The notes: generated by a model not told the origin, from the letters alone. Counted from the stretch's first letter, positions 171 to 16,629 are shown. The stretch is DNA of 30,004 nt from a virus (IMGVR_UViG_2740892439_000007:1-30004); one strand, 5' to 3'. Translations and numbers: made by a program.

Positions 171-248
171 TTGACCGAAATAGAGAGTTTGCACCTTTAC
201 GTTTAGCTTGCTCCCCTTATATGCCACATCACAATAAAGCCAATAAGA

Positions 249-261
249 AAACAACTTGTTT
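249..261. promoter_or_regulatory. Operator-like palindrome AAACAA-C-TTGTTT (perfect) upstream of CDS 280-846
   Basis: 6-1-6 perfect inverted repeat 19 nt upstream of the ATG; member of a family recurring at least 12 times in the window. Confidence 0.6.
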
Positions 262-279
262 AAGCATTAAGGAAAACAC

Positions 280-846
280 ATGTGCGAGAAATGCAAAGCA
301 ATAGCTGATGAACAAAACGCCCTATTCGAAGAAATGGATGCTAATGAACTTGTCAAAATGTTAGCCATTCTTCGAGGAATAGAAGACGTTTCCATATTTG
401 AGAGACTGTTTACAATACTTAATTTTAATTCCACCTTTGAAGAGCCAACTCAGATTGTAGCTTTGGCACACCATTTCGGTGTTCATTACCTTGCTGAAAA
501 AGAGAGAGCTGATAAGTTGCAAGCGACTTTGGATATGGTGAGCGAGACTCAAGGAACTGATGACGGTAACAAAAGTGAGACGATTATTGCCAGCAAAGAT
601 CGTGAAATTGCCGGGCTTAAATCCTCTCTAACGATGTTGATGTCTGCAATTAACCTTATGTCTTCTAAAGCAGGTTATAAAATGCCATCACTAAACAGCG
701 ACGATCCGATGGCCGTTCGCCAGCTTTTAGGTGCAATGGCCGACCAGCTCGACGACACAAAGAGTCGCCTTGAAGACATGATGCGGGAGCTCACGCATCG
801 CCATGACTTGAATAAGCAGCCGCACAAAACGCAATACGCACTCTAA
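280..846 (+). CDS. Hypothetical protein (188 aa)
   Basis: ORF with ATG start and upstream aagga RBS; own operator upstream and intrinsic terminator downstream. Confidence 0.7.
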   Translation: MCEKCKAIADEQNALFEEMDANELVKMLAILRGIEDVSIFERLFTILNFNSTFEEPTQIVALAHHFGVHYLAEKERADKLQATLDMVSETQGTDDGNKSETIIASKDREIAGLKSSLTMLMSAINLMSSKAGYKMPSLNSDDPMAVRQLLGAMADQLDDTKSRLEDMMRELTHRHDLNKQPHKTQYAL

Positions 847-863
847 TACTGCACCAGTCGACA

Positions 864-885
864 GGGGGCGAAAGCCCCCATTTTT
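864..885 (+). terminator. Rho-independent terminator (gggggc gaaa gccccc + TTTTT)
   Basis: 6-bp GC stem, GAAA tetraloop, then T5 immediately after the stop of CDS 280-846. Confidence 0.75.
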
Positions 886-940
886 ACGCCTTAAATCTGC
901 TGTAACGCCTATGAATGCAGCTTTTATGCCTTTTCAAGTT

Positions 941-975
941 TGCGATAATTACACCAATCAGAAAACAAATTATTT
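941..975 (+). promoter_or_regulatory. Extended -10 promoter (TGCGATAAT, 941-949) followed by operator AAACAA-A-TTATTT (963-975)
   Basis: Cassette ttgcgataat(t/a)acaccaa...agaaaacaa is repeated almost verbatim at 13999, 15441 and 15929. Confidence 0.6.
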
Positions 976-987
976 AATGGTGTAATT

Positions 988-2673
988 ATGAATACAGCCC
1001 TTTCCATCAGCGACGATGCCAGCTCAAACACGGCTATCGACTATCGTCAGGAAATGAATGTCATCCACGAAATCGTGGCCGAGTGCGAGAAAGAGATCGC
1101 CTTCATGTATCAGGTACACGACTTCGTTTATGGCGACGAACGCCACAACATGATTAATCGCCTGCTGAGACTAAACCATCGACCAGATGAAGATCGCTCG
1201 CGTTTAAATCGAGGTTGGTTGGATAAAGTCGATCTGGAATGGGTGAAACAGAATATTTGGGCCGAGTACTGGAGGAAGGTCACGGACATGACTAACGTTT
1301 TGCTGATCATGCCAGCTTCCCGTCGAGATGAGTGGCGCGAGCAGTTTATAGAGGGCAAACAGGAAGTCATCAAAACTGACAGAACCGGCTACCAGATGAA
1401 GGTTAAAGAGTTCGTTGGTGTACCGGAGTTCAAAGCAGAAACGGTCATACCCACGATGCTTAATTTGCTGAATGACAGGCACAAATATCTCTCTGAGCGC
1501 GTGTATGGCTTGTTTAAGGCGCTGAGTCCTGCGCACAAGACAAATAAGACAAACGGTTTCAGCGAGCGTCTGATAATCGCTGACTGCATTTCTGATTTCT
1601 GGCGGGACAGCGTTAGCGTGAACTATCGCAAAGAGGACTACATCGACGATCTGCGTGTCTTGCTTCATTTCTTCGCGCACAAAGAATTTATTACCATCAA
1701 CCGCACTGCTGAGGTGCTATCAGCTGCGTATCGGGCAAACGACTGCCAGACCGGTGACTGGATGAACGTCGATGGAAATCTGATGCGCGTGAAGATGTTC
1801 AAGAACGGCAACGTTCACTTTGAAATACATCCTGACGTGGCCTGGAAGTTGAATGAGGTGCTGGCTTACAGTATGCCTGCTGCAATTCCCGCGCCATGCC
1901 GAACTGCGCCAAAAACACGGGCACCAAAGCAGTTCGGGTTAATCCAGAAGACGATCTCCGTGCCGGTTCGCACTGCGCTTCGTGACGGGCGATTGAGCAA
2001 AGACAAAGGCGTATGGTACTTCTCTGATTCAGCTCTCCAGAAGTCGCAGGTGGAAGAGCTTGAGCGCACACTGAGCTTCATTGGCGGCGTGCAGGAGAAA
2101 AAGCACTGGCAGTTCCCGTATGACATCGGCCATACGCTAAATACGATTGTGGCTACCGGTTTAATACCGGATACAAAATCACACCAGTTCTACCCTACCC
2201 CACGCTTGATTGCTGAGTACGTTGCCAGAGCCACTGAATTGAAGCCTGGTGAGAAGCTGCTGGAGCCTCAAGCCGGACGTGGGGATCTTCTGGCCTATAT
2301 TAACGCCGATCTGGAAGATGTTACCTGCATAGAAATCGCACCTCTCTTCGCTGATATCCTGCGTGGAAAAGGGTATACGAACACGATTTGCTGCGACTTC
2401 ATAAAGTGGTCTGAGGACAACGCAGGTTATCAGTTCGACAAAATCGTTATGAACCCGCCGTACTCGCTTGGTCGTCATAGAGAGCACACGCTGGCTGCGC
2501 TGGGGCATCTGAAAGTCGGCGGGCGTCTTGTAGCAGTATTGCCGGGCACTGCGCCAATACTGGACTGGATGACGATGGATAATTACGTTTATGCCAGAGG
2601 GAAGTCGTTTACCAACGAGTTTGAAGATACCGGGATCACAGTCAGCGTATACGTTTTCAAACGCGTTAAATGA
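988..2673 (+). CDS. SAM-dependent amino-methyltransferase (probably DNA N6-adenine or N4-cytosine) with a roughly 400-aa N-terminal domain of unknown function
   Basis: C-terminal region has an LEPQAGRGDLL motif-I-like SAM-binding segment followed by NPPY (motif IV); the N-terminal 400 aa match nothing I recognise. Confidence 0.7.
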   Translation: MNTALSISDDASSNTAIDYRQEMNVIHEIVAECEKEIAFMYQVHDFVYGDERHNMINRLLRLNHRPDEDRSRLNRGWLDKVDLEWVKQNIWAEYWRKVTDMTNVLLIMPASRRDEWREQFIEGKQEVIKTDRTGYQMKVKEFVGVPEFKAETVIPTMLNLLNDRHKYLSERVYGLFKALSPAHKTNKTNGFSERLIIADCISDFWRDSVSVNYRKEDYIDDLRVLLHFFAHKEFITINRTAEVLSAAYRANDCQTGDWMNVDGNLMRVKMFKNGNVHFEIHPDVAWKLNEVLAYSMPAAIPAPCRTAPKTRAPKQFGLIQKTISVPVRTALRDGRLSKDKGVWYFSDSALQKSQVEELERTLSFIGGVQEKKHWQFPYDIGHTLNTIVATGLIPDTKSHQFYPTPRLIAEYVARATELKPGEKLLEPQAGRGDLLAYINADLEDVTCIEIAPLFADILRGKGYTNTICCDFIKWSEDNAGYQFDKIVMNPPYSLGRHREHTLAALGHLKVGGRLVAVLPGTAPILDWMTMDNYVYARGKSFTNEFEDTGITVSVYVFKRVK

Positions 2674-2734
2674 TAGGTAAATACTTACTTAATTTGTGTA
2701 AGAATGTAGTAACTAAACGATAAGAGAAAAACAC

Positions 2735-3439
2735 ATGAACAACCTCCAGTTAGAGCATTTTAACGTCACAGGCCATTCTGATTTTCCTTTCAAGTTTACA
2801 TTGAAAGGTTATGCAGAGGATGCGGTAGGCCAGATTATTATTGATAAAGGCATCGTTAAGTTTGAGGGGAATTTTGATGAATCCGCGAAAACATTCATAG
2901 ACTTCGTTGCCAAACGTTGGAGCGAGCAATGGAAAGACATGGAAAAGCGCGCTAGTGAGTTTGATCGGTTCATGGATGCAATGGATACAGCAAAAGAGGC
3001 TCTTGCTGCCGGGACTCCGTTAGATCTTGAGTCACTTTTCAACGGCGAAGTGGCCTCTGCGATGTTCGCCACCATGTTCGCGGGTGAGTTCGTCCGCAGC
3101 GGTGCCAAAAACTACCTTGAGCTGGATTACAACGTCCCTGCAATTGGCGATTTCGTCGTTACCATCCAACGCAAAGAAGGTAAGACGCCAGGTGAACGCG
3201 TCGCAGAGCTTGAGGCCGTTGTGGATCAGCGTAACGGAGAGTGTGACCGTTTGATCAACGAGCTTCATGCACTTCGGGAAGAAAGAATATGTGCGGGTAG
3301 CAATACACGTAATGCAGCGGATATCTACTTCCAGTTAGTTGAGGAATGCCAGATTCCACCAGGTGGCTCTCTTGTCGATTACGTCAGACATTTAATGGCG
3401 GAAGTTAACTCCAGCCATAAAGATGGTGAGGTGCGCTGA
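2735..3439 (+). CDS. Hypothetical protein (234 aa)
   Basis: ORF with ATG preceded by gagaaaaacac leader similar to those of 280 and 3958; first gene of a coupled operon. Confidence 0.65.
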   Translation: MNNLQLEHFNVTGHSDFPFKFTLKGYAEDAVGQIIIDKGIVKFEGNFDESAKTFIDFVAKRWSEQWKDMEKRASEFDRFMDAMDTAKEALAAGTPLDLESLFNGEVASAMFATMFAGEFVRSGAKNYLELDYNVPAIGDFVVTIQRKEGKTPGERVAELEAVVDQRNGECDRLINELHALREERICAGSNTRNAADIYFQLVEECQIPPGGSLVDYVRHLMAEVNSSHKDGEVR

Positions 3440-3819
3440 TGTTTGGCATTGACGCACAGCGTATAGCCGCTTTTGCAAAAAGCCCTCTTGATAATCCCTT
3501 GTCTCGTAGTGAGCAAATGGAGCTGGCAAGGCTTTTTATTCACATTCAAAAACAGGCAGACGTTTTCAATAACATGCCTGATCAACCTATTCTGGATGGT
3601 CACATCCAGATGGTCATTAACAGTCATGAGAAAGGCTGGGCTGCAATCGTCCCCTGCACAATTACATACAAGTTGGCGAAAGAGGTTCAAGAGTTTCGAA
3701 AAGCCAGTGTCGAATCGGAGTCTACCAAAGCCGCAATAAACACTCTTATTCGCATGGGGTTCACATGGACCGGTGGAGCCTACTGGCAAGCACCTCACCC
3801 CATTTTATCCGGCAATTAG
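3439..3819 (+). CDS. Hypothetical protein (126 aa)
   Basis: ATGA start/stop overlap with the upstream gene (translational coupling). Confidence 0.6.
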   Translation: MFGIDAQRIAAFAKSPLDNPLSRSEQMELARLFIHIQKQADVFNNMPDQPILDGHIQMVINSHEKGWAAIVPCTITYKLAKEVQEFRKASVESESTKAAINTLIRMGFTWTGGAYWQAPHPILSGN

Positions 3820-3850
3820 ACGCTACAAATCCTTCGGCATGAATAAATAA

Positions 3851-3869
3851 AGGCCATAAGTTGTGGCCT
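3851..3869 (+). terminator. Hairpin (aggcca taagttg tggcct), weak terminator candidate
   Basis: 6-bp stem after the stop of CDS 3439-3819; T-rich tract only 8 nt further downstream. Confidence 0.35.
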
Positions 3870-3870
3870 T

Positions 3871-3883
3871 AAATAAATTGTTT
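3871..3883. promoter_or_regulatory. Operator-like palindrome AAATAA-A-TTGTTT (1 mismatch), within a 30-bp block also found at 10736
   Basis: aaattgttttctaccttttcttatttg here versus caatttgttttctaccttttgttgattg at 10738. Confidence 0.5.
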
Positions 3884-3957
3884 TCTACCTTTTCTTATTT
3901 GTGAAAATAAACCAGCACTTGGTAGTGCTTATGTAACAGCAAAGAAGAGAAAAACAC

Positions 3958-4200
3958 ATGAGTAACAAAATCGAAAACCCCGTAGTTCTCATTCACAAGC
4001 GTGAGAACCCCGACTCCTATGCGGTGGCGATCACCAATGGGAGTCACGATTATTACGATGGTCTGCTAATGGCCTCAGTGTCGCCTGATGAGGCAGACAA
4101 CTCTTTTGCCGTCTTCGCTATGGTTGGTTACTACATGGCTGCCGAAATTGAGAAGTTGCGGGCGCAGAGAGACGCATTAGCGGCGGAGAATGCAGCCTGA
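3958..4200 (+). CDS. Hypothetical protein (80 aa)
   Basis: ORF with ATG and gagaaaaacac leader. Confidence 0.55.
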   Translation: MSNKIENPVVLIHKRENPDSYAVAITNGSHDYYDGLLMASVSPDEADNSFAVFAMVGYYMAAEIEKLRAQRDALAAENAA

Positions 4201-4226
4201 AAGAATCTGAGCGAGCATTCGATGCG

Positions 4227-4412
4227 ATGTGTGCCGAGGAACACGGAGATAATTGGGTTAGCGAATTAACGGAGACTCCAGCCACCGATGCTTTTCTGGC
4301 TGAAGTACGTGCGCAGGGCGTGGAGATGTTTGCTGAGTGCGCATACACACTTGAACATCATGATCACGCAGTAGCTTTTGCCGCTGAGCTTCGTACAGGA
4401 AATAAACAGTGA
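4227..4412 (+). CDS. Hypothetical protein (61 aa)
   Basis: ORF with ATG start; stop overlaps the next gene start (GTGA). Confidence 0.45.
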   Translation: MCAEEHGDNWVSELTETPATDAFLAEVRAQGVEMFAECAYTLEHHDHAVAFAAELRTGNKQ

Positions 4413-5134
4413 ATGAGATTTACTACCTGACGTTACGTGAACGTTATTCACCAAAACCAGCGCCTAAATGCTCTGTTTGTGACGAGGAAATGTCAATACA
4501 GCGCATATCTGGAGCACATGTTGTTTATGCCTGTTCCGGTGAGGGTGATGACGGATATTTTAAGATAGGGCGTACTTTTGCAGACGAACATTATGAAAAA
4601 TCACGCGTAACAGTAGTTGATGATAGTGATCCCGATGTGATTGCACTGCTGGACGAACTGGATAAAAGACAGCAACACATCCGACGTCTTGAGCAGGAGA
4701 ACGTAGAGATGGCCCTAACGCTTGAGAAACTGCGTGTTGAGCTGGAGACCGTTAAACAGCGGGAAAAGGATCTGTTTATGGAAAATGTTCGACTTAAGTC
4801 AGGTATAGCAGGTCTGATACACCTCGGTATTCGATATGCGGATGTCGAAGTCATGAAAATAGCTGGTGATGCCCAGCTTTCTACTCCCTGTACTGACAGC
4901 ATCATAAACAGTATTGCATCAGGCGTTTTCACCAAAGAGGTCAGCATTATGAGAACAGTAGAAGTTCGCGCTGAAGATGTAACCCCAGGTGATGTGGTCA
5001 TAACATCTAAAGGCAAACGATGTGCGGTTAAATCTTTCTGGATGGAAGGTGACAAAGTGACTCTGTTCGGTACGGATGGTTCCGAAACGGATTATGACTA
5101 CGACGAATTACTTGTTGTTGAGAGAGCTATCTAA
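4409..5134 (+). CDS. Hypothetical protein (241 aa) with an N-terminal Cys cluster (CSVC...C) and a predicted coiled coil
   Basis: ORF from GTG overlapping the upstream stop; sequence features only, no family recognised. Confidence 0.6.
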   Translation: MNEIYYLTLRERYSPKPAPKCSVCDEEMSIQRISGAHVVYACSGEGDDGYFKIGRTFADEHYEKSRVTVVDDSDPDVIALLDELDKRQQHIRRLEQENVEMALTLEKLRVELETVKQREKDLFMENVRLKSGIAGLIHLGIRYADVEVMKIAGDAQLSTPCTDSIINSIASGVFTKEVSIMRTVEVRAEDVTPGDVVITSKGKRCAVKSFWMEGDKVTLFGTDGSETDYDYDELLVVERAI

Positions 5135-5829
5135 TGACCACCGTTAACAATAAGAAATGCTACCCAAGCGAGCAATATCTTAATGAGCTGATCACCAACA
5201 TAGAGTTTGCTGCAAGGACACCTGTTGAAGTCGTGAGAGCGATGGCAGCAGAGCTACAGAAGCGGCGCGAAGCTGATAGTGCAGAACCTGTAAGCCAAAC
5301 TTACAAGTTGCCAGTTAATACACCTTGCCAAGATGCGCCAGCCCATATCTGGCTGCAAACGGCTGGAGTATGGCCAGAAGATAGCGAGTTAAGCGAATTA
5401 ACGTGGTGCAGCCACAATCAGCACCATGATGACACGCTATATGTTCGAGCTGACCTTGTGAATGGCAACTATCCGGATATTCCGGATAGTTCGGTGCCAG
5501 CGCCAGGAAAGGGCGTCACCGGTGAACGTATCCGCATTAAGCCGCATGTTTATCGCGAACTGGTTAACCGCCTCCACGATACAGCGATCAAGTGTGCTGG
5601 CACCCAGCAATTACGAGAAAAAATTAGCCGTGTTTTGGGCGACGTTATTACGCCAGATCATCATAAACAAGCCGAGAAAAGTGACCTGGAAAGGTGTCAC
5701 CTTGAGGCGGCATTAAATATTAAGCCGGGACATACGCTTGGCATTATCGATGCTCTGTTGGTTCATAAGATGGCCAGGGCTTTATTGCCGCTGGTGGATG
5801 CTGGCGATACAAGCGAGGGTGAAGTATGA
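5134..5829 (+). CDS. Hypothetical protein (231 aa)
   Basis: TAATG overlap with the upstream gene. Confidence 0.6.
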   Translation: MTTVNNKKCYPSEQYLNELITNIEFAARTPVEVVRAMAAELQKRREADSAEPVSQTYKLPVNTPCQDAPAHIWLQTAGVWPEDSELSELTWCSHNQHHDDTLYVRADLVNGNYPDIPDSSVPAPGKGVTGERIRIKPHVYRELVNRLHDTAIKCAGTQQLREKISRVLGDVITPDHHKQAEKSDLERCHLEAALNIKPGHTLGIIDALLVHKMARALLPLVDAGDTSEGEV

Positions 5830-6188
5830 GAGTTGCAGATCACATCAAAAACCTTGAAAGAATTATCGAAAACGGTGAACTCTTAAGAGATCAGATGAGA
5901 CGCACGGCAGAAGTCAGAGAGGCGATAATTCGCAGTCAGGCTGGTAAATTAAAGCAATTGTCAGAGATTAACACGCTATACAAGAACAGACGTAACCGGG
6001 TGGCGCTGCGGCTTCAGAAAGCACGTAATGAAATTAAATTGGTGGAGGCAAAACTGAAAAAACAGATCCAGCGTTACGATCAGCAAGATGCTTTTTATGC
6101 CGCCATCAAGGCGGTTGCTAATGAAATAGGCATCTGGAAGTTGCTGGTGGAGGAAGCAAAGACGAAGTTAAATGCCAACGAAAGCTGA
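5826..6188 (+). CDS. Hypothetical basic coiled-coil protein (120 aa)
   Basis: ATGA overlap with the upstream gene; last gene of the coupled operon. Confidence 0.6.
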   Translation: MRVADHIKNLERIIENGELLRDQMRRTAEVREAIIRSQAGKLKQLSEINTLYKNRRNRVALRLQKARNEIKLVEAKLKKQIQRYDQQDAFYAAIKAVANEIGIWKLLVEEAKTKLNANES

Positions 6189-6261
6189 ACTACAGGTGCC
6201 CACCAGCATACAGAAAATGATTGTTTCCACATCAAGGAGATTTTAATGTTTCACTGAAACA

Positions 6262-6399
6262 TTAAGTAAGCCAGTGCATAATTCCATTTTTTACTGATCT
6301 TAAAAGCAAAATCAAAACGATGATGAGGATAATAGCCAGAATCTGGCTAATAACAGGCGCATCTAAAAATGCACTCAGGAACTGAAAAAAAGCGTTCAT
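6262..6399 (-). CDS. Small hydrophobic protein candidate (45 aa, MNAFFQFLSAFLDAPVISQILAIILIIVLILLLRSVKNGIMHWLT)
   Basis: ORF below the size cutoff of the supplied track; single predicted transmembrane segment; weak RBS. Confidence 0.3.
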   Translation of the reverse strand: MNAFFQFLSAFLDAPVISQILAIILIIVLILLLRSVKNGIMHWLT

Positions 6400-6441
6400 T
6401 CAGGTGGTTCCTTGTCAAATGTAAAGGTGCACTTGCTCACG

Positions 6442-6470
6442 TTGACGTAGAAACCCAACCCCTATATAGT
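6442..6470 (+). promoter_or_regulatory. Sigma-70-like promoter candidate TTGACG-N17-TATAGT
   Basis: Near-consensus -35 and -10 with 17-bp spacer; no convincing CDS downstream; iteron-like motifs and a hairpin (6555-6580) follow. Confidence 0.35.
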
Positions 6471-6516
6471 TGGATTCGGTGAATGAAAGTCGTTAACGTG
6501 AGCTTACGGCACATGT

Positions 6517-6541
6517 TTTCGGAAAAACATCAGGGAACGGC
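6517..6541. repeat. Iteron-like motifs (ttttcggaaaaacatc aggGAACGGC) related to the arrays at 13548 and 16514
   Basis: Shares the block GAAAAACATC-GGGAA with 16606-16625. Confidence 0.4.
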
Positions 6542-6896
6542 TAATTCCTTGATGCGGGTGGGGTCTGTAATGCAGACCCTATCTATTAACGTCATGATTG
6601 CATCTCAAATTTTCTCCTTATCTTCAATTAATCTACATTCATTTCATCTGTTAGCCACCACAATATGTAGAAAATGGCCCTCTTGCAAGTGCATAGCTTT
6701 GTGGATAACTCAGGAAGGAAAAAGTGGCTTTCGCGCACTTTAGACCGGACAAGGCGTTCGAAAAAGTCAATGGGAAGAAAAAATTTGTTAAAAATAACGT
6801 TTGTTTGAATTGTATATATTTATGCCTTTCAATAGTTAGCATCTTATTAACATCTTTTTTAAGAGATAGAGTTCAAAAATATATAGCTTCAACATA

Positions 6897-6916
6897 TACT
6901 GTATGTGTATACAGTA
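6897..6916. promoter_or_regulatory. LexA (SOS) box TACTGTATGTGTATACAGTA overlapping a TATACT -10
   Basis: Perfect CTGT-N8-ACAG dyad 17 nt upstream of the UmuD'-like start codon. Confidence 0.8.
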
Positions 6917-6932
6917 TTAAGAGGCGAGTATT

Positions 6933-7322
6933 ATGGGCTTCCCTTCTCCTGCGGCGGATTATGCTGAGAGCCGTATTTCTCTTGATCAGCAGATAATTAG
7001 ACATCCTTCAGCGACCTACTTCATGAGGGCAGCTGATAGTCATCATCGTGAGGGAATATTACAGGGTGCATTGCTGGTGGTCGATTCCTCACTTACCCCG
7101 GTTGATGGTTCTCTGCTTGTATGCGCTCTGGATGGGGAATATCGCGTAAAAAGATACCGGAAGTACCCACGTCAGCATCTGGAGGATTTAAGAACCGGTA
7201 AGAAGGAAGCATTGCCAAAGGATGACGATGGATGCACGGGCAGCAATGCCGTGTTTGGTGTGATCACTCACATTATCAACGACGCAAGAAGTGGCGAGTT
7301 TGATGATTGTCCCGTGATGTAG
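6933..7322 (+). CDS. UmuD'-like S24 peptidase-family protein, encoded without the N-terminal cleavable arm (HumD-like)
   Basis: Begins M-GFPSPAADY, i.e. at the equivalent of the UmuD Cys24/Gly25 cleavage site; Ser (ADSH) and Lys (RVKR) of the catalytic dyad are present; no upstream in-frame start is available. Confidence 0.8.
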   Translation: MGFPSPAADYAESRISLDQQIIRHPSATYFMRAADSHHREGILQGALLVVDSSLTPVDGSLLVCALDGEYRVKRYRKYPRQHLEDLRTGKKEALPKDDDGCTGSNAVFGVITHIINDARSGEFDDCPVM

Positions 7323-7334
7323 GAGAACTGATTA

Positions 7335-7358
7335 GGCGGTGCAATGCACCGCCTTTTT
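7335..7358 (+). terminator. Rho-independent terminator (ggcggtgc aat gcaccgcc + TTTTT)
   Basis: 8-bp GC stem plus T5, 13 nt after the UmuD'-like stop and ending 2 nt before the mrp stop codon. Confidence 0.75.
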
Positions 7359-7359
7359 A

Positions 7360-8460
7360 TCACACTGCGCGGAATGCGATTTCGCCAGGTATTACTTCAC
7401 CTTGCCAATACATTTGGGCAGCAACGCGATCTGCGAGGTCACGATAAATAGCCGTAAATTCGCTATCTGGACGACTAATAACGGTTGGTGTTCCGTTATC
7501 CAGATCTTCACGAAGAGAGATATGAAGTGGCATTTGGCCTAACAACTGCGTGTTGTATTTCTCGGCCAGTTTCTGTGCGCCACCGGTGCCAAAAATTGGC
7601 TCGTGATGACCGCAGTTACTGCAAATATGCACACTCATGTTTTCGACGATACCCAGTACCGGCACTTCGACTTTTTCGAACATCACAATGCCTTTCTTCG
7701 CATCGATCAGCGCGATGTCTTGCGGCGTAGTTACCACAACCGCACCAGTTACAGGAATGTTCTGCGCCAGCGTCAACTGAATATCACCAGTGCCCGGCGG
7801 CATATCGAGAACGAGATAGTCCAGATCAGGCCATAGAGTTTCCTGCAACATCTGCATCAGCGCCTTGCTGGCCATCGGTCCACGCCACACCATTGCATTG
7901 TCGTCGGTGACCAGATAACCAATAGAGTTGGTTGCCAGGCCATGAGACATGATAGGTGCCATGTGAGTACCGTCAGGTGAGGTTGGACGTTGGTTTTCCG
8001 CTCCCAGCATGGTTGGAATTGATGGACCATAGATATCGGCATCCAAAATACCAACTTTCGCACCTTCAGCAGCCAACGCCAGTGCCAGGTTCACCGCCGT
8101 GGAGGATTTACCCACGCCGCCCTTGCCTGAGCTGACGGCGATAATGTTCTTAACGCCATTAATGCCTGGTTGGTTTTTGACGCGCTTAAGCGTGGCAATG
8201 TTGTACGACAGCTTCCAGTCAATAGCCTTTGCGCCAGTGATACGGAGCAGATCACCACTACATTGCTCTTTCAGGTCTTCAAAAGGCTTATTCCACACGA
8301 AAGGCATGATTAGTTCGACATGCAGTGTGTCATCCATCAACGCAACATGGTGTAACGCTTTAAGCGTAGTCAGGTTGTGTTTCAGGGTTGGGTGCTGAAA
8401 ATTAGCCAGCGTACCGGCTACCATTGCTCTCAGGGCATCCGGCGATTTGGACTCGCTCAT
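7360..8460 (-). CDS. apbC: Fe-S cluster carrier ATPase ApbC/Mrp
   Basis: 366-aa product with P-loop SSGKGGVGKS and C-terminal CxxC; near-identical to E. coli Mrp as recalled. Confidence 0.95.
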   Translation of the reverse strand: MSESKSPDALRAMVAGTLANFQHPTLKHNLTTLKALHHVALMDDTLHVELIMPFVWNKPFEDLKEQCSGDLLRITGAKAIDWKLSYNIATLKRVKNQPGINGVKNIIAVSSGKGGVGKSSTAVNLALALAAEGAKVGILDADIYGPSIPTMLGAENQRPTSPDGTHMAPIMSHGLATNSIGYLVTDDNAMVWRGPMASKALMQMLQETLWPDLDYLVLDMPPGTGDIQLTLAQNIPVTGAVVVTTPQDIALIDAKKGIVMFEKVEVPVLGIVENMSVHICSNCGHHEPIFGTGGAQKLAEKYNTQLLGQMPLHISLREDLDNGTPTVISRPDSEFTAIYRDLADRVAAQMYWQGEVIPGEIAFRAV

Positions 8461-8617
8461 CCCGTCTCCTTTATTTTAATTTGCGCAATTGTCGCCTTGT
8501 AGTGTACTCCAGCTACGACATTTAATCATTTATGAGAAATGCTGTTATCACATGGCAGACATAAGGCCATTTTGTTACTATCAAGCCCCTTTTCACTACA
8601 AAGAAGTAATGCCTACT

Positions 8618-10651
8618 ATGACCCAAGTCGCGAAGAAAATTCTGGTGACGTGCGCGCTGCCGTACGCTAACGGCTCAATCCACCTCGGCCATATGCTGGA
8701 GCACATCCAGGCTGATGTCTGGGTTCGTTACCAGCGAATGCGCGGCCACGAGGTTAATTTCATCTGTGCCGACGATGCCCACGGTACGCCGATCATGCTG
8801 AAAGCACAGCAGCTTGGTATCACACCGGAGCAGATGATTGGCGAAATGAGTCAGGAACACCAGACTGATTTCGCAGGCTTTAACATCAGCTATGACAACT
8901 ATCACTCGACGCACAGCGAAGAGAACCGTCAGTTGTCTGAGCTTATCTATACTCGCCTGAAAGAGAACGGTTTTATTAAAAACCGCACTATCTCTCAGTT
9001 GTACGACCCGGAAAAAGGCATGTTCCTGCCGGATCGTTTTGTAAAAGGCACCTGCCCGAAATGTAAAGCGCCAGATCAATACGGCGATAACTGTGAAGTC
9101 TGCGGCGCGACCTACAGCCCGACTGAACTGATTGAGCCGAAATCGGTAGTTTCTGGCGCTACGCCGGTAATGCGTGATTCTGAACACTTCTTCTTTGATC
9201 TGCCCTCTTTCAGCGAAATGTTGCAGGCATGGACCCGCAGCGGCGCGTTGCAGGAGCAGGTGGCGAACAAAATGCAGGAATGGTTTGAATCCGGCCTGCA
9301 ACAGTGGGATATCTCCCGCGATGCGCCTTACTTCGGTTTTGAAATTCCGAACGCGCCGGGCAAATATTTCTACGTCTGGCTGGACGCGCCGATTGGCTAC
9401 ATGGGTTCCTTCAAGAATCTGTGCGACAAGCGCGGCGATACCACCAGCTTCGATGAATACTGGAAGAAAGACTCCACCGCCGAGCTGTACCACTTCATCG
9501 GTAAAGATATTGTTTACTTCCACAGCCTGTTCTGGCCTGCCATGCTGGAAGGCAGCAACTTCCGCAAGCCGACCAACCTGTTTGTTCACGGCTATGTGAC
9601 GGTGAACGGCGCGAAGATGTCCAAGTCTCGCGGCACCTTTATTAAAGCCAGCACCTGGCTGAATCATTTTGACGCCGACAGCCTGCGTTACTACTACGCT
9701 GCGAAACTCTCTTCGCGCATTGATGATATCGATCTCAACCTGGAGGATTTCGTTCAGCGCGTGAATGCCGATATCGTGAACAAAGTGGTTAACCTGGCCT
9801 CCCGTAATGCAGGCTTTATCAACAAGCGTTTTGACGGCGTGCTGGCAAGCGAACTGGCTGACCCGCAACTGTACAAAACCTTTACTGATGCCGCTGAAGT
9901 GATTGGCGAAGCATGGGAAAGCCGCGAATTTGGTAAAGCTATCCGTGAAATCATGGCATTGGCTGACCTGGCTAACCGCTATGTCGATGAACAGGCTCCG
10001 TGGGTGGTGGCGAAGCAGGAAGGACGCGATGCCGATCTGCAGGCGATTTGCTCTATGGGCATTAACCTGTTCCGCGTGCTGATGACGTACCTGAAGCCGG
10101 TACTGCCGAAACTGACTGAACGTGCAGAAGCATTCCTGAATACAGAACTGACCTGGGATGGTATCCAGCAACCGCTGCTGGGCCATAAAGTGAATCCGTT
10201 CAAGGCACTGTATAACCGTATCGATATGAAGCAGGTTGAAGCACTGGTGGAAGCATCTAAAGAAGAAGTGAAAGCAGCTGCCACGCCAGTAACTGGCCCG
10301 CTGGCAGATGATCCGATTCAGGAAACCATCACCTTTGATGACTTCGCCAAAGTTGACCTGCGCGTGGCGCTGATTGAAAACGCAGAGTTTGTAGAAGGTT
10401 CTGACAAACTGCTTCGCCTGACGCTGGATCTCGGTGGTGAAAAGCGTAATGTCTTCTCAGGCATCCGTTCCGCTTATCCAGATCCACAGGCACTGATTGG
10501 TCGTCACACCATTATGGTGGCTAACCTGGCACCACGTAAAATGCGCTTCGGTATCTCTGAAGGCATGGTGATGGCTGCTGGCCCTGGCGGGAAAGATATC
10601 TTCCTGTTAAGCCCGGATGTCGGTGCTAAACCTGGCCACCAGGTTAAGTAA
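8618..10651 (+). CDS. metG: Methionine--tRNA ligase
   Basis: [25 protein letters not shown] (HIGH motif), KMSKS, C-terminal tRNA-binding domain; near-identical to E. coli MetG as recalled; the track ORF start at 8489 is an upstream alternative codon. Confidence 0.97.
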
Positions 10652-10673
10652 TTAAGCAACCATTCTTCACAAT

Positions 10674-10697
10674 GCCCAGCAATACGCTGGGCATTTT
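10674..10697 (+). terminator. metG rho-independent terminator (gcccagc aatac gctgggc + TTTT)
   Basis: 7-bp stem and T-run 22 nt after the metG stop. Confidence 0.8.
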
Positions 10698-10735
10698 CAT
10701 ATAGACACAACCCCTTCTGACTTTAACAAACCCTA

Positions 10736-10799
10736 AAACAATTTGTTTTCTACCTTTTGTTGATTGAGATAATAAGCCACATAAGAAAACAAATTGTTT
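10736..10799 (+). promoter_or_regulatory. Promoter with two perfect operators (10736-10748 AAACAA-T-TTGTTT; 10787-10799 AAACAA-A-TTGTTT) flanking an extended -10 TGAGATAAT (10765-10773)
   Basis: Operator centres 51 bp apart, the same spacing as at 15412/15463. Confidence 0.65.
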
Positions 10800-10812
10800 C
10801 GGAGTGGTTGAA

Positions 10813-12616: not shown

Positions 12617-13330
12617 AGAAAACAACTAAATAACAGATCAACGAAACATCAACGCTTTCTCCCGATTTGGTCTAAAAAATTGACGTTATCACACATCACT
12701 TCTTATACCCGTAATTCTACGCAGCAGATAGCGCCACAGCGTCCAAATTTCACCACAAACGACTCAACACACTACCAACAAAAACACACGCTCAAAATCG
12801 CTCCCGTTGCGTTACACAACCATATAAACAACTTATTTTCAGGCATAACAAAACAACTAAATAACACATATGACATTCCCCAAAACAACCAACCTCTTTA
12901 TGGCAGGCTACCGAAAAGACCCACCTCTTCTCCCCAGGCTACCGGACAACCAACCTAACTTTCACAGGCAATCCGAAAACATTCATACGCGCGATACCCA
13001 CGACACGCCATTCCCCAAACAGCGAAGAAACACCAGAATCACTGAAACCCCAACGAAGCCTGTTACCGCAAGGATTCTCTCAATCCCAAAAGACACGAAA
13101 CATAACAATCACGGGAAACGCCATTACCCAATACACGAATAACTACAAAAGCCCTTCACGCACTCCAGACAAACAACTCAAACACAATAACGAAAGCAAT
13201 CGCCCACCTGCCATTACTCCATACACGGAGAAGAACAATCACCAAAACGACGAGAACACCCCATAGAAGAACCACCGCAAAACGAACGAAACCATTTACA
13301 CCGACAGAGAGAACAACACACCCAATTCAC
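12617..13330 (+). other. About 0.7-kb noncoding tract with strong A+C strand bias (roughly 75 percent A+C on the plus strand) and internal repeats
   Basis: Hand counts on two 60-nt lines gave 75 and 77 percent A+C; track ORFs here are low-complexity P/T/N/Q/H-rich translations. Confidence 0.7.
12888..12981 (+). repeat. Three tandem ~30-bp direct repeats (CCACCTCTT...CCAGGCTACCG family)
   Basis: Units at about 12888-12920, 12921-12950, 12951-12981; same family as 15811-15900. Confidence 0.6.
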
Positions 13331-13466
13331 CAACAGAAATAGTCGCCGTATAGAACATTCTGGAAGGAGTGAGCATTAACGCCTATAGAGAGGTTGAGAC
13401 AGATAAACACGAAGAAAACACAACATGTATAGCGAAGAAGCCAGGTATGTATAAGTGGGGAGGGAA

Positions 13467-15810: not shown

Positions 15811-15900
15811 TACCACCTGCTTTCCCGCAGGCTAAAAACACCCACCTCTTACCGCCAGGCTACCGAAGCACCCACCTGTTCCCGTCCGGCTACCGCAACT
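15811..15900 (+). repeat. Three exact-period 30-bp tandem direct repeats (cCCACCTnnTTnCCnnCaGGCTAcc...)
   Basis: Units at 15811-15840, 15841-15870, 15871-15900; related to 12888-12981. Confidence 0.65.
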
Positions 15901-16513: not shown

Positions 16514-16629
16514 CAGGGAAATTTTCAGAAACGGCGAGGAACGTATTCATGAGCCGACGGGAAACGGCCAGGATTTTTTCGGGAAACGGCTGCATTCGCC
16601 TTTATGTAGAAAAACATCGGGAAGCTGGT
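16514..16629 (+). repeat. Second iteron array (GGGAAACGGC-type, about five units, two of them exactly 22 bp apart at 16559 and 16581)
   Basis: Same core as the 13548-13700 array. Confidence 0.6.

Follow-up and report, generated by a model that had tools for sequence, protein, structure and literature searches.

An SSU5-like phage-plasmid of Escherichia coli carries an old chromosomal mrp-metG capture with a split history

The DNA analysed here (the window) is a stretch of 30,004 nucleotides from a virus (IMGVR_UViG_2740892439_000007:1-30004) that carries the bacterial genes mrp and metG side by side, on opposite strands. The pair lies between two phage-like flanks, as an earlier note on this DNA had proposed. 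Both open reading frames are intact. The features on which the argument depends are as follows.

3867-3914, plus strand: left operator-promoter module, a member of repeat family D5 with an operator match at 3871; left boundary of the accessory slot.
3911-7321, plus strand: foreign accessory block 5' of the cassette, with Ead/Ea22-like genes and a P1-like portion.
6897-6916, plus strand: LexA (SOS) box TACTGTATGTGTATACAGTA, read from the sequence and overlapping the predicted -10 element of the humD promoter.
6933-7322, plus strand: humD, an S24 peptidase gene of P1 type, UmuD'-like (NCBIfam NF051876, 219.8 bits, cut-off 120).
7334-7358, plus strand: intrinsic terminator of humD, a 9-bp stem followed by T5 (folding energy -18.6 kcal/mol, z = -6.1).
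7360-8460, minus strand: mrp/apbC, plasmid-type Fe-S cluster carrier, 366 aa, intact (NF008669, 759.3 bits, cut-off 348).
8461-8617, no strand: divergent intergenic region, delimited by K-12 alignment, with BLAST matches beginning at 8565-8571.
8618-10651, plus strand: metG, plasmid-borne methionyl-tRNA synthetase (MetRS), 677 aa, intact (NF001100, 1019.1 bits, cut-off 587).
10671-10699, plus strand: hairpin and T-run 3' of metG (folding energy -17.6 kcal/mol, z = -5.5).
10732-10801, plus strand: right operator-promoter module, with repeats D2, D5 and I16 and palindromes at 10734-10750 and 10785-10801.

Proteins of the Mrp/ApbC family are recognised by a Walker A catalytic lysine together with a cluster-bridging C-X-X-C motif (PMC8593673). 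The plasmid protein retains both GKGGVGKS and CSNC, its equivalog match to NF008669 spans residues 2-366, and no consensus difference from K-12 Mrp was found across residues 87 to 295; its predicted function is that of an Fe-S carrier. The metG product is covered by NF001100 over residues 4-677, by TIGR00398 (698 bits) and, for the C-terminal tRNA-binding domain, by TIGR00399 (161 bits), with the signatures HLGH near the N-terminus and KMSKS starting at residue 333. It is 98.5% identical to K-12 MetRS, and the eight consensus differences are conservative, each being found in 5 to 74 of 81 sampled chromosomal orthologs. Aminoacylation activity is predicted from this identity together with a dN/dS of about 0.02. 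In DNA identity to K-12 the two genes stand at 82% for mrp (dS 1.63) and 94.7% for metG (dS 0.25).

Between the genes, alignment to K-12 is poor and broken by indels from 8461 to about 8566, whereas the metG-proximal leader from about 8567 is near-identical to it; a breakpoint in history is therefore placed at about 8567, where the similarity switches. A scan of 8461-8617 in the plasmid sequence alone returned no consensus sigma-70 promoter, a result that is uninformative by itself. An Rfam scan of the full window gave zero matches at gathering thresholds.

The cassette occupies a variable accessory slot that has a module of the backbone operator-promoter system at each edge. Counting each strand separately, the window contains 24 matches to the operator palindrome GAAAACAAnTTGTTT, spread over about 15 sites, with 0.54 expected by chance. 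Sites lie at 247, 961 and 3871 on the left and at 10734, 10785, 12826, 14019 and further on to the right, with none between 3886 and 10733, so the operator does occur on either side of mrp-metG, as had been reported. Similarity to phage SSU5 (L084) stops and restarts at these modules: window positions 3840-3910 align with SSU5 4573-4642, the similarity ends at 3910, and it resumes at the right module, where 10731-10799 aligns with SSU5 7315-7383. A second shared motif, GAAAAACATC(A)GGGAA, is indeed present at 6522-6537, and a copy that differs by 2 mismatches lies at 16609-16624 (0.06 expected). As an 'iteron' linking the flanks it was dropped, because a lone, imperfect extra 16-mer whose first copy lies inside a P1-derived block says little about kinship.

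The accessory block as a whole (3911-7321) is missing from SSU5, its Klebsiella relatives and the variant L097. Its portion from 5463 to 7321, lxr to humD, is 92.5% identical to canonical phage P1, and humD is 85-88% identical at the DNA level to humD of P1, P7 and D6. The humD promoter was predicted at 6872-6900 by a promoter scan, and in strain LF82 the homologue reaches log2 12.2 in macrophages, up from 7.4.

Alignment to K-12 places the ends of similarity at the two stop codons. Chromosomal similarity is restricted to 7364-10652, from one stop codon to the other; in BLAST comparisons with all the loci retrieved, no match runs more than about 7 nt beyond either. The left junction is as tight as had been described, although the gap between the humD T-run (hairpin 7334-7354, T-run 7354-7358) and the TCA at 7360-7362 that is the complement of the mrp stop is 1 nt rather than 2. 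The two flanking hairpins had been taken for terminators native to the host genes. Neither has a counterpart 3' of these genes in K-12, nor in any of the 14 Enterobacteriaceae loci read downstream, and the left one lacks a U-tract on the minus strand.

Both flanks belong to one element, as the earlier note had allowed: the window is part of a single SSU5-like phage-plasmid of E. coli, about 110 kb in size, of the pECOH89/pLF82 (Cyrano) sub-lineage. It is 99% identical over 25 kb to pECAZ155_2, a circular plasmid of 112,917 bp that encodes terminase, portal, major capsid and ParB, so that in this nearest relative morphogenesis and plasmid maintenance genes share one circular, non-integrated replicon of the expected size (about 100-115 kb). 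SSU5 backbone similarity lies on either side of 3911-10730, at 83% identity over 194-3910 and 65-88% from 10731 onward with conserved gene order, which places the window by DNA similarity and synteny in the SSU5_pHCM2 group. The replicon type of the relatives is rep_cluster_488, 237 of 5426 complete genomes have the portal gene, always on a plasmid and never on a chromosome, and virion production has been reported for the close relative Cyrano/pLF82 (PMC9928086).

These observations bear on the first readings of the locus, in which essential host DNA would lie in a chromosome with phage DNA around it. The best match is a free phage-plasmid, and the cassette is a diverged plasmid paralog rather than the host locus. 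An assembly chimera, in which chromosomal mrp-metG reads were misjoined to phage or plasmid contigs, could appeal to the 2-kb repeat of about 95% identity that metG forms between plasmid and chromosome and to draft contigs that join both replicons within it, but it retains practically no probability, since independent sequencing has yielded the junctions in over 200 circular plasmids, since they recur in phage genomes, and since the cassette differs from chromosomal sequence, mrp being just 82% identical. Native chromosomal genes between two related prophage insertions, or inside one rearranged prophage, would account for operator motifs on either side and are just as effectively excluded by identical junctions in about 200 circular plasmids, by best matches that are 110-kb circular plasmids, by the chromosomal neighbours of mrp-metG (yehE and yehF/molR), by a portal gene that has no chromosomal copy in 5426 genomes, and by the presence of chromosomal-type mrp in almost every genome.

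Some 200 complete circular plasmids have these junctions, as do the phage genomes Cyrano and PhiR41_1. The cassette region is present in 210 RefSeq E. coli records and 205 PLSDB plasmids (189 PLSDB records at 95% identity or above). Plasmid-type mrp was matched at 80-90% identity in 216 records, compared with 219 places on plasmids. Carriers span E. coli, E. albertii, E. fergusonii and Shigella, and both genes are annotated as intact coding sequences in 36 of 37 sampled PLSDB rows. The module is near-fixed in the pECOH89/pLF82 sub-lineage, almost all members of which carry a conserved second copy of metG and mrp. Both reading frames were even kept in an E. albertii derivative of 64 kb, from which about 45 kb is gone, including the ParB-to-portal block (terminase, portal). 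Two records that seemed to offer independent captures, 'Pseudomonas phage Y5' and 'Acinetobacter phage MD-2021a', were rejected; their flanks are host chromosome (dcd, Tse3, pfs, emrB), and they are mislabelled or unverified host DNA rather than cassette-bearing phages.

A chromosomal copy is kept in nearly all genomes: mrp is present on 5424 chromosomes among the 5426 genomes, and every genome has a match to metG. This makes it extremely improbable that the element works by addiction, through relocation of an essential gene, or that its synthetase is a second, inhibitor-resistant one of the MupA/MetRS2 type. While metG is essential and plasmid-borne second aminoacyl-tRNA synthetases are known for resistance (NCBIfam holds models for MupA and MupB), the chromosomal genes have stayed in place, and the plasmid enzyme, 98.5% identical to K-12 MetRS with eight conservative differences, does not show the divergent active site of a resistance enzyme.

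Among the explanations first offered, a captured host fragment proved correct, though the DNA is not recent host DNA. The cassette is an old chromosomal capture from an Escherichia-related enterobacterium. Plasmid mrp is about as far from E. coli as Salmonella mrp is (dS about 1.6), and in the mrp tree it falls outside the clade of E. coli and Escherichia sp. E1V33 with 100% bootstrap. Its GC3 is 0.52, compared with 0.62 in E. coli, and on the plasmid branch GC-to-AT changes exceed the reverse by 33:11, which together indicate amelioration towards AT. In a donor scan, the closest of the 80 species listed were E. coli, at 82.2% for mrp and 94.7% for metG, and C. werkmanii, at 82.7% for mrp; the loci listed include no E. 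albertii, E. fergusonii or E. marmotae chromosome. A recent pick-up from the current host, as in F-primes or specialised transduction, draws on the 94.7% identity of metG to E. coli, with tracts up to 100%, and is nonetheless very unlikely given the divergence and tree position of mrp, its AT amelioration, and within-clade dS values that reach 0.15 (mrp) and 0.26 (metG) across hosts. E. coli as a recent donor is refuted by the divergence of mrp; had the donor been an unsampled lineage whose mrp was divergent, a recent capture would have only the AT amelioration against it.

The two genes have since had different histories, as dS calibration, trees and a sliding-window comparison each indicate. 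No E. coli-type tract was found in plasmid mrp by the sliding-window comparison. In metG, runs of K-12-type alleles occur at differing positions among sister plasmids, and their clustering was significant by permutation (p < 1e-4 in three plasmids, 8e-4 in one and 0.02 in one). This pattern indicates recurrent gene conversion of plasmid metG by chromosomal alleles, although some of the tracts could derive from recombination between plasmid lineages instead of direct exchange with the chromosome. Mrp would have diverged on the AT-richer plasmid until, at 82% identity, it no longer recombined with the host copy, while metG would be overwritten patch by patch through RecA-type gene conversion from resident chromosomal alleles. 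Repeated patch conversion of this kind may explain why metG has stayed close to E. coli and is at the same time highly polymorphic. Single crossovers joining plasmid and chromosome could arise from this homology as well.

A selected role as DNA homology, with metG as a RecA-dependent landing pad for integration and excision without an integrase, seems quite unlikely. Both expected crossover products are represented: contigs running from humD and plasmid mrp through a hybrid metG into molR (L096, L099, L104), and one running from yehBCDE and chromosomal mrp through a hybrid metG into the plasmid DUF5983 gene (L112). The crossover points vary among contigs, and plasmid Mrp appears on contigs of more than 200 kb in about 99 of 12090 index blocks. 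All four contigs are, however, draft or metagenome assemblies, where an assembler that passes through the repeat common to both replicons would produce identical-looking contigs; these joins represent possible integration. No integrant is present in the 5426 complete genomes with their approximately 219 carriers, where a junction-contig query covered at most 87% of any complete record. Homology alone also leaves the amino-acid conservation, and a mrp that does not recombine, unexplained.

That conservation is marked. Both genes are under purifying selection as strong as that on their chromosomal orthologs, with dN/dS of 0.01-0.03. Polymorphic codons are divided between 68 synonymous and 2 amino-acid-changing in mrp and between 212 and 13 in metG. 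Within the plasmid clade, dN of mrp is 0 in 7 of 10 comparisons, with dS up to 0.11 in those pairs and 0.15 overall, and dS of metG reaches 0.26. For metG the signal is partly confounded and could in part be imported with converted chromosomal tracts. An alternative reading is a functionless hitch-hiker, of no use to the element and kept intact only by conversion from the host copy or by the dominant-negative poisoning of host dimers by its variants. Host alleles visibly convert metG, and transcription of metG in the lysogen is low. ApbC is dimeric (PMC8593673), so missense variants could be dominant-negative. The MetRS of E. coli is likewise a homodimer. Against this stand the mrp data, since at 82% identity and without E. 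coli-type tracts host recombination should be rare and yet dN is 0 in most comparisons. Furthermore, null alleles would evade dominant-negative selection, yet both genes are annotated as intact in 36 of the 37 sampled plasmids, and the cassette was retained in the derivative that lost about 45 kb. We regard the hitch-hiker reading as unlikely.

An auxiliary function of the cassette is suggested instead by the transcription of mrp in the lysogen together with the retention of the pair in the derivative without the ParB-to-portal block. In LF82 the Cyrano mrp homologue, CYRAN_99, is expressed about 9-fold over the prophage background in LB and was scored as a moron, on an element with a copy number of about 5.5 (PMC9928086). 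Plasmid metG barely exceeds background (floor 2.32), at log2 values near 4.0 in LB and near 3 in the other conditions, or about 1.6-fold over it and below the 5-fold moron threshold, figures that are subject to ambiguous mapping, as reads may be mis-assigned between copies that are 95% identical. From a replicon at about five copies per cell, the module would provide additional Fe-S carrier and MetRS, both wild-type-like, and mrp-metG would thereby serve the plasmid state as auxiliary housekeeping genes. The benefit to the element is the weakest step of this account. The account as a whole, an SSU5-like phage-plasmid with an old mrp-metG capture, a split history and an auxiliary function, is one we consider probable. 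A more speculative and rather unlikely extension is that metG provides a portable homology region for reversible switching between episome and prophage at host metG without an integrase. The element would then shuttle metG alleles, and possibly yeh/molR genes, between strains by transduction, and the diverged, lysogen-expressed Mrp with extra MetRS would confer a selectable phenotype under stress (for example iron, oxidative or limited Met-tRNA charging).

Among complete E. coli genomes, about 4% hold phage-plasmids of this kind (approximately 219 cassette carriers among 5426), and CTX-M or other resistance genes are often found on them. The second mrp-metG copy is visible in public annotation, but no discussion of it was found in the searchable literature: work on SSU5, phage-plasmids and phage-like plasmids gave no mention of metG, MetRS or mrp, and the pECOH89 announcement and a phage-plasmid survey leave both genes unmentioned. 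For practical purposes, the 95%-identical metG repeat can yield chimeric or 'integrated' contigs and confound metG typing or read mapping in carriers. The pair also amounts to a natural experiment in which two genes were captured together, after which mrp moved beyond the range of recombination and metG stayed bound to the host allele pool. As such, the system could be useful for studying plasmid-chromosome gene conversion, the identity threshold for homologous exchange, and what a phage-plasmid gains from housekeeping genes.

Among known systems, the nearest is the SSU5/pHCM2 supergroup itself (PMC7969092; PMC3999498), with which the element shares backbone, size, gene order and the dispersed operator system. 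The slot instead holds SSU5-type content, namely genes for an HD-hydrolase, LprI and YdfZ, without mrp-metG, in SSU5 itself, in the relatives from Klebsiella and in a divergent sub-lineage of E. coli whose portal gene is 84% identical. Morons of temperate phages are autonomous non-backbone units of promoter, gene and terminator that are transcribed from the repressed prophage. Like them, the cassette lies between backbone transcription units in a variable slot, flanked by hairpins and with a putative divergent promoter region of its own; classical morons are usually virulence, exclusion or toxin genes, whereas this one duplicates core housekeeping genes. F-prime and R-prime plasmids, lambda dgal and P1 derivatives similarly hold a contiguous piece of chromosome that can recombine with the resident locus. 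F-primes, R-primes and specialised transducing phages are, however, recent, unstable products on a laboratory timescale and identical to their donor, while the present cassette is old (mrp dS about 1.6), trimmed to two reading frames and fixed in a lineage found in nature.

The psbA gene of cyanophages is a host-derived auxiliary metabolic gene. Both cases involve a full-length host housekeeping gene under purifying selection with mosaic tracts indicative of host-phage exchange, but here the carrier is a temperate phage-plasmid at about five copies, the genes encode a tRNA synthetase and an Fe-S carrier, and mrp has escaped exchange and diverged. Complete class I aminoacyl-tRNA synthetases, MetRS in some cases, also occur in the genomes of giant viruses (PMC11304981). 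Those enzymes are deep-branching and belong to very large lytic viruses, in contrast to the plasmid MetRS, which is 98.5% identical to that of its host and probably continually homogenised with it.

An intact and conserved mrp-metG pair, captured by an SSU5-like phage-plasmid, is borne in a variable slot of this element. The first 25 kb of the window are matched by circular E. coli plasmids of ~110 kb, with at least 80% query coverage in 84 records of the match list. The best match (99% identity, 100% of the query) is pECAZ155_2, annotated as a phage-plasmid with terminase, portal, major capsid and ParB proteins, a DEAD-box helicase, an N6-adenine methyltransferase and a HumD/S24 peptidase. 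Escherichia phage Cyrano (pLF82), PhiR41_1 and two CMS-2020a records are 96–98% identical to the window over the same region, and Cyrano has been described as an SSU5-like phage-plasmid that makes virions and is present at ~5.5 copies per cell (PMC9928086). Of 5426 complete E. coli genomes, 237 contain the portal region, on plasmids in every case and never on a chromosome. A single phage-plasmid therefore spans the window, and the suggestion of the earlier note that both phage-like regions belong to the same element holds. Two separate insertions are rejected, as is an assembly chimera. The features to which the following paragraphs refer are:

3867-3914, left operator-promoter module, boundary of the slot
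3911-7321, first block of the slot: Ead/Ea22-like genes, then a P1-like segment from lxr to humD
6897-6916, perfect LexA box TACTGTATGTGTATACAGTA, overlapping the predicted -10 of humD
6933-7322, plus strand, humD, a P1-type UmuD'-like S24 peptidase gene
7334-7358, left hairpin (9-bp stem and T5 run; folding gives -18.6 kcal/mol, z = -6.1)
7360-8460, minus strand, mrp/apbC, intact ORF
8618-10651, plus strand, metG, intact ORF; with mrp the second block of the slot, right of humD
10671-10699, second hairpin, downstream of metG
10732-10779, right operator-promoter module, boundary of the slot

The cassette is a paralog, and not the host core genes in place as had been proposed from the sequence. 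Similarity to the E. coli chromosome, ~90% overall, is limited to 7364-10652, the stretch between the two stop codons, and BLAST against all fetched loci extends at most ~7 nt beyond either stop codon; in K-12 the neighbours of the pair are yehE and yehF. The hairpins had been taken for native terminators, but neither resembles the K-12 sequence downstream of mrp or metG, and no counterpart was found at these places in 14 Enterobacteriaceae loci with flanks read. The left junction is as tight as described, with a gap of one base (rather than 2 nt) between the hairpin T-run and the complement of the mrp stop codon. A search of the 5426 genomes located mrp of the chromosomal type (K-12 identity of 90% or more) on 5424 chromosomes, which rejects addiction by replacement of the chromosomal copy. 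Plasmid-type mrp forms a separate band of 80–90% identity (216 records, against 219 plasmid places) and was found on none of the complete chromosomes of these genomes; carriers therefore keep their own copy.

RefSeq has 210 E. coli records with the cassette and PLSDB 205 plasmids; the carriers belong to E. coli, Shigella, E. albertii and E. fergusonii. Matching counts point to its presence in nearly every member whose portal is at least 95% identical, and ~21 members with a divergent portal appear, as in the one example checked, to be without it. Other database matches have different settings. In the phages collection, mrp-metG matches were returned from OQ572407.1, CAKLQF020000011.1, CAKLQH020000007.1 (a second MD-2021a contig), and OR850913.1 and OR851172.1 (short 'Salmonella phage S.Kent 1-2-1' fragments); Pseudomonas phage Y5 and the Acinetobacter phage MD-2021a contig CAKLQF020000011.1 were rejected as phage carriers, the surroundings being ordinary host chromosome. 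The apbC-metG pair of CP075030.1, a 301,781 bp Salmonella enterica 'plasmid' in PLSDB, is 83.5% identical to the cassette and of the Salmonella chromosomal type; this record could represent part of a chromosome or else a prime-like megaplasmid. In the 'Enterobacter hormaechei B56' chromosome (CP170191.1; positions 2255-5535 of the fetched locus), 3281 bp, bounded almost precisely by the two stop codons, are 100.000% identical to E. coli K-12 mrp-metG and lie between Enterobacter-like flanks (75–84% vs other Enterobacter); either the allele was replaced very recently, or the assembly is contaminated or carries a polishing artefact.

SSU5 backbone similarity covers 194-3910 of the window and starts again at 10731. 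The boundary modules are 81% identical to each other and each is conserved in SSU5. SSU5, Klebsiella pJN2-26 and a divergent E. coli sub-lineage, represented by plasmid B of strain S56 with a portal of 84% identity, all carry HD-phosphohydrolase, LprI and YdfZ genes in the slot. The operator palindrome GAAAACAAnTTGTTT, often inside a repeated promoter module of ~48–77 nt, gives 24 strand matches against 0.54 expected, and its presence on both flanks of mrp-metG, as noted earlier, is confirmed. The ~15 sites lie at 247, 961, 3871, 10734, 10785, 12826, 14019, 14503, 15410, 15461, 15947, 18337, 19850, 24810 and 24835, and the window scan returned none between 3886 and 10733. Because module copies coincide with the slot boundaries, they may act as linkers at which recombination exchanges cassettes. 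This dispersal recalls the scattered C1 operators of phage P1. The further link between the flanks by a GAAAAACATC..GGGAA block is weak, with one exact copy, which sits within DNA 92.5% identical to P1, and another with two mismatches.

The P1-like block (5463-7321, lxr to humD, 92.5% identical to canonical P1) lies on an SSU5-type backbone, a sequence arrangement that suggests exchange between two different phage-plasmid families. Upstream of it (3847-5463) are Ead/Ea22-like genes common to lambdoid and Stx phages and some P1 variants. Cassette and P1-like block are separable, since one variant locus (L097) keeps the former without the latter. In its reverse complement, at 5793-5984, the start of an SSU5-type HD-phosphohydrolase gene and a truncated IS1 end are followed by the humD-terminator T-run beside mrp, so that the HD gene start and IS1 fragment adjoin the hairpin; this arrangement points to an IS1-mediated deletion at GCACC(G/A)CC microhomology. 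Elsewhere in the window, ~700 nt at ~12640-13340 are A+C-rich and G/T-poor on the plus strand (GC skew -0.33, AT skew +0.34), with only short ORFs of 118 and 90 aa in the ORF list and no Rfam match; the adjoining ~30-nt repeats (CCACCTCTT..CCAGGCTACCG) are present again at 15813-15895.

The two cassette genes have discordant histories. Identity to K-12 is 82% for mrp and 94.7% for metG, and the corresponding dS values are 1.63 and 0.25, compared with 1.38 and 0.91 for K-12 vs Salmonella, and 0.59 and 0.28 for K-12 vs Escherichia sp. E1V33. By neighbour joining, mrp of the plasmids forms a clade that falls outside E. coli and E1V33 (bootstrap 1.0) and is the sister of Escherichia (0.93), and plasmid metG is nested within Escherichia as sister to E. 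coli (0.9). The switch lies between the genes at ~8567, where the metG leader is nearly identical to K-12 and the mrp-proximal part is poorly aligned. GC3 of plasmid mrp (0.51–0.53) is the lowest among the orthologs examined (E. coli 0.62), that of plasmid metG is like E. coli (0.61 vs 0.625), and the mrp branch carries 33 GC-to-AT vs 11 AT-to-GC changes, as would be expected from a long stay on a replicon of 46% GC. Recent acquisition from E. coli is rejected, and we infer an old capture after which mrp probably diverged in situ.

The plasmid metG is mosaic. At 52 sites where the plasmid consensus and K-12 differ, K-12-type alleles occur in runs whose positions vary from plasmid to plasmid, with longest-run permutation p <1e-4 in pECOH89, pEC881_2 and the fetched locus L100, 8e-4 in the E. 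albertii plasmid and 0.02 in p204A1. Some 150-nt windows of metG show 100% K-12 identity, and within-clade dS reaches 0.26 in metG, above the 0.15 of mrp. These sequence patterns argue for recurrent gene conversion, in which RecA-type exchange with resident chromosomal alleles would hold metG E. coli-like, with mrp now presumably under the identity threshold for such exchange.

Both reciprocal products of crossover inside metG are present among public contigs returned by a look-up of the exact plasmid Mrp protein with the right-flank DUF5983 protein. Three contigs (L096, L099, L104) carry humD, plasmid mrp, metG with a plasmid-type 5' and chromosome-type 3' part, and molR; one (L112) carries yehBCDE, chromosomal mrp, metG with a chromosome-type 5' and plasmid-type 3' part, and plasmid genes. 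All four are draft or metagenome assemblies, the candidate integrants being in GCA_009790885.1, GCA_042824375.1, ERZ28596387 and GCA_030198605.1; in such assemblies a path through a shared repeat would mimic a real integrant, and no such junction was found in complete genomes; chromosomal integration by crossover in metG is possible. A 2.7-Mb contig (L102, GCA_949281555.1) joins plasmid-type mrp, together with the initial 476 nt of metG, to lambda-like tail genes, and a chromosome-sized record of 5.57 Mb (L101, CP043541.1) holds the cassette with plasmid genes on either side; these are misassemblies, or else copies outside the complete E. coli set of RefSeq that have been rearranged or integrated. 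It is possible, though unlikely, that metG is selected as a homology landing pad.

Purifying selection acts on both genes. Pairwise dN/dS of metG is 0.01–0.03 among 11 plasmid copies, and dN of mrp is 0 in 7 of 10 comparisons with the window (dS at most 0.11 in those pairs, at most 0.15 overall). Synonymous polymorphic codons outnumber those that change an amino acid by 212 to 13 in metG and by 68 to 2 in mrp, and the plasmid ratios equal those among chromosomal orthologs. A functionless passenger is possible, though unlikely for mrp. Both products pass their NCBIfam equivalog models over full length (MetRS NF001100, 1019 bits, cut-off 587; ApbC NF008669, 759 bits, cut-off 348), and have the HLGH and KMSKS motifs in MetRS and, in ApbC, the Walker A GKGGVGKS and CSNC motifs, the roles of which have been described (PMC8593673). 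Among 37 evenly spaced PLSDB matches, mrp and metG are both annotated as intact CDS in 36, and the remaining one is truncated where its record begins. Both ORFs are also kept in a 64-kb derivative from E. albertii that lacks the ParB-to-portal region. Both genes look functional. In LF82, the plasmid mrp homolog is expressed at log2 ~6.5 (S1 Table, PMC9928086), and the metG homolog CYRAN_100 at log2 ~4.0 in LB and ~3 in other conditions (floor 2.32), values in which reads of the two metG copies are possibly confounded (PMC9928086). The humD homolog rises ~25-fold in macrophages, from log2 7.4 to 12.2 (PMC9928086), which fits the LexA box.

A resistant-synthetase allele is rejected, and the preferred reading is a module that would supply an extra Fe-S carrier and MetRS, to the benefit of the plasmid state. 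Our literature search found no papers discussing metG or mrp on SSU5-like elements; both genes already carry annotations in public records. Precedents exist for host-derived auxiliary genes, for morons and for virus-encoded synthetases, and the instructive part here is the evolutionary pattern of the cassette.
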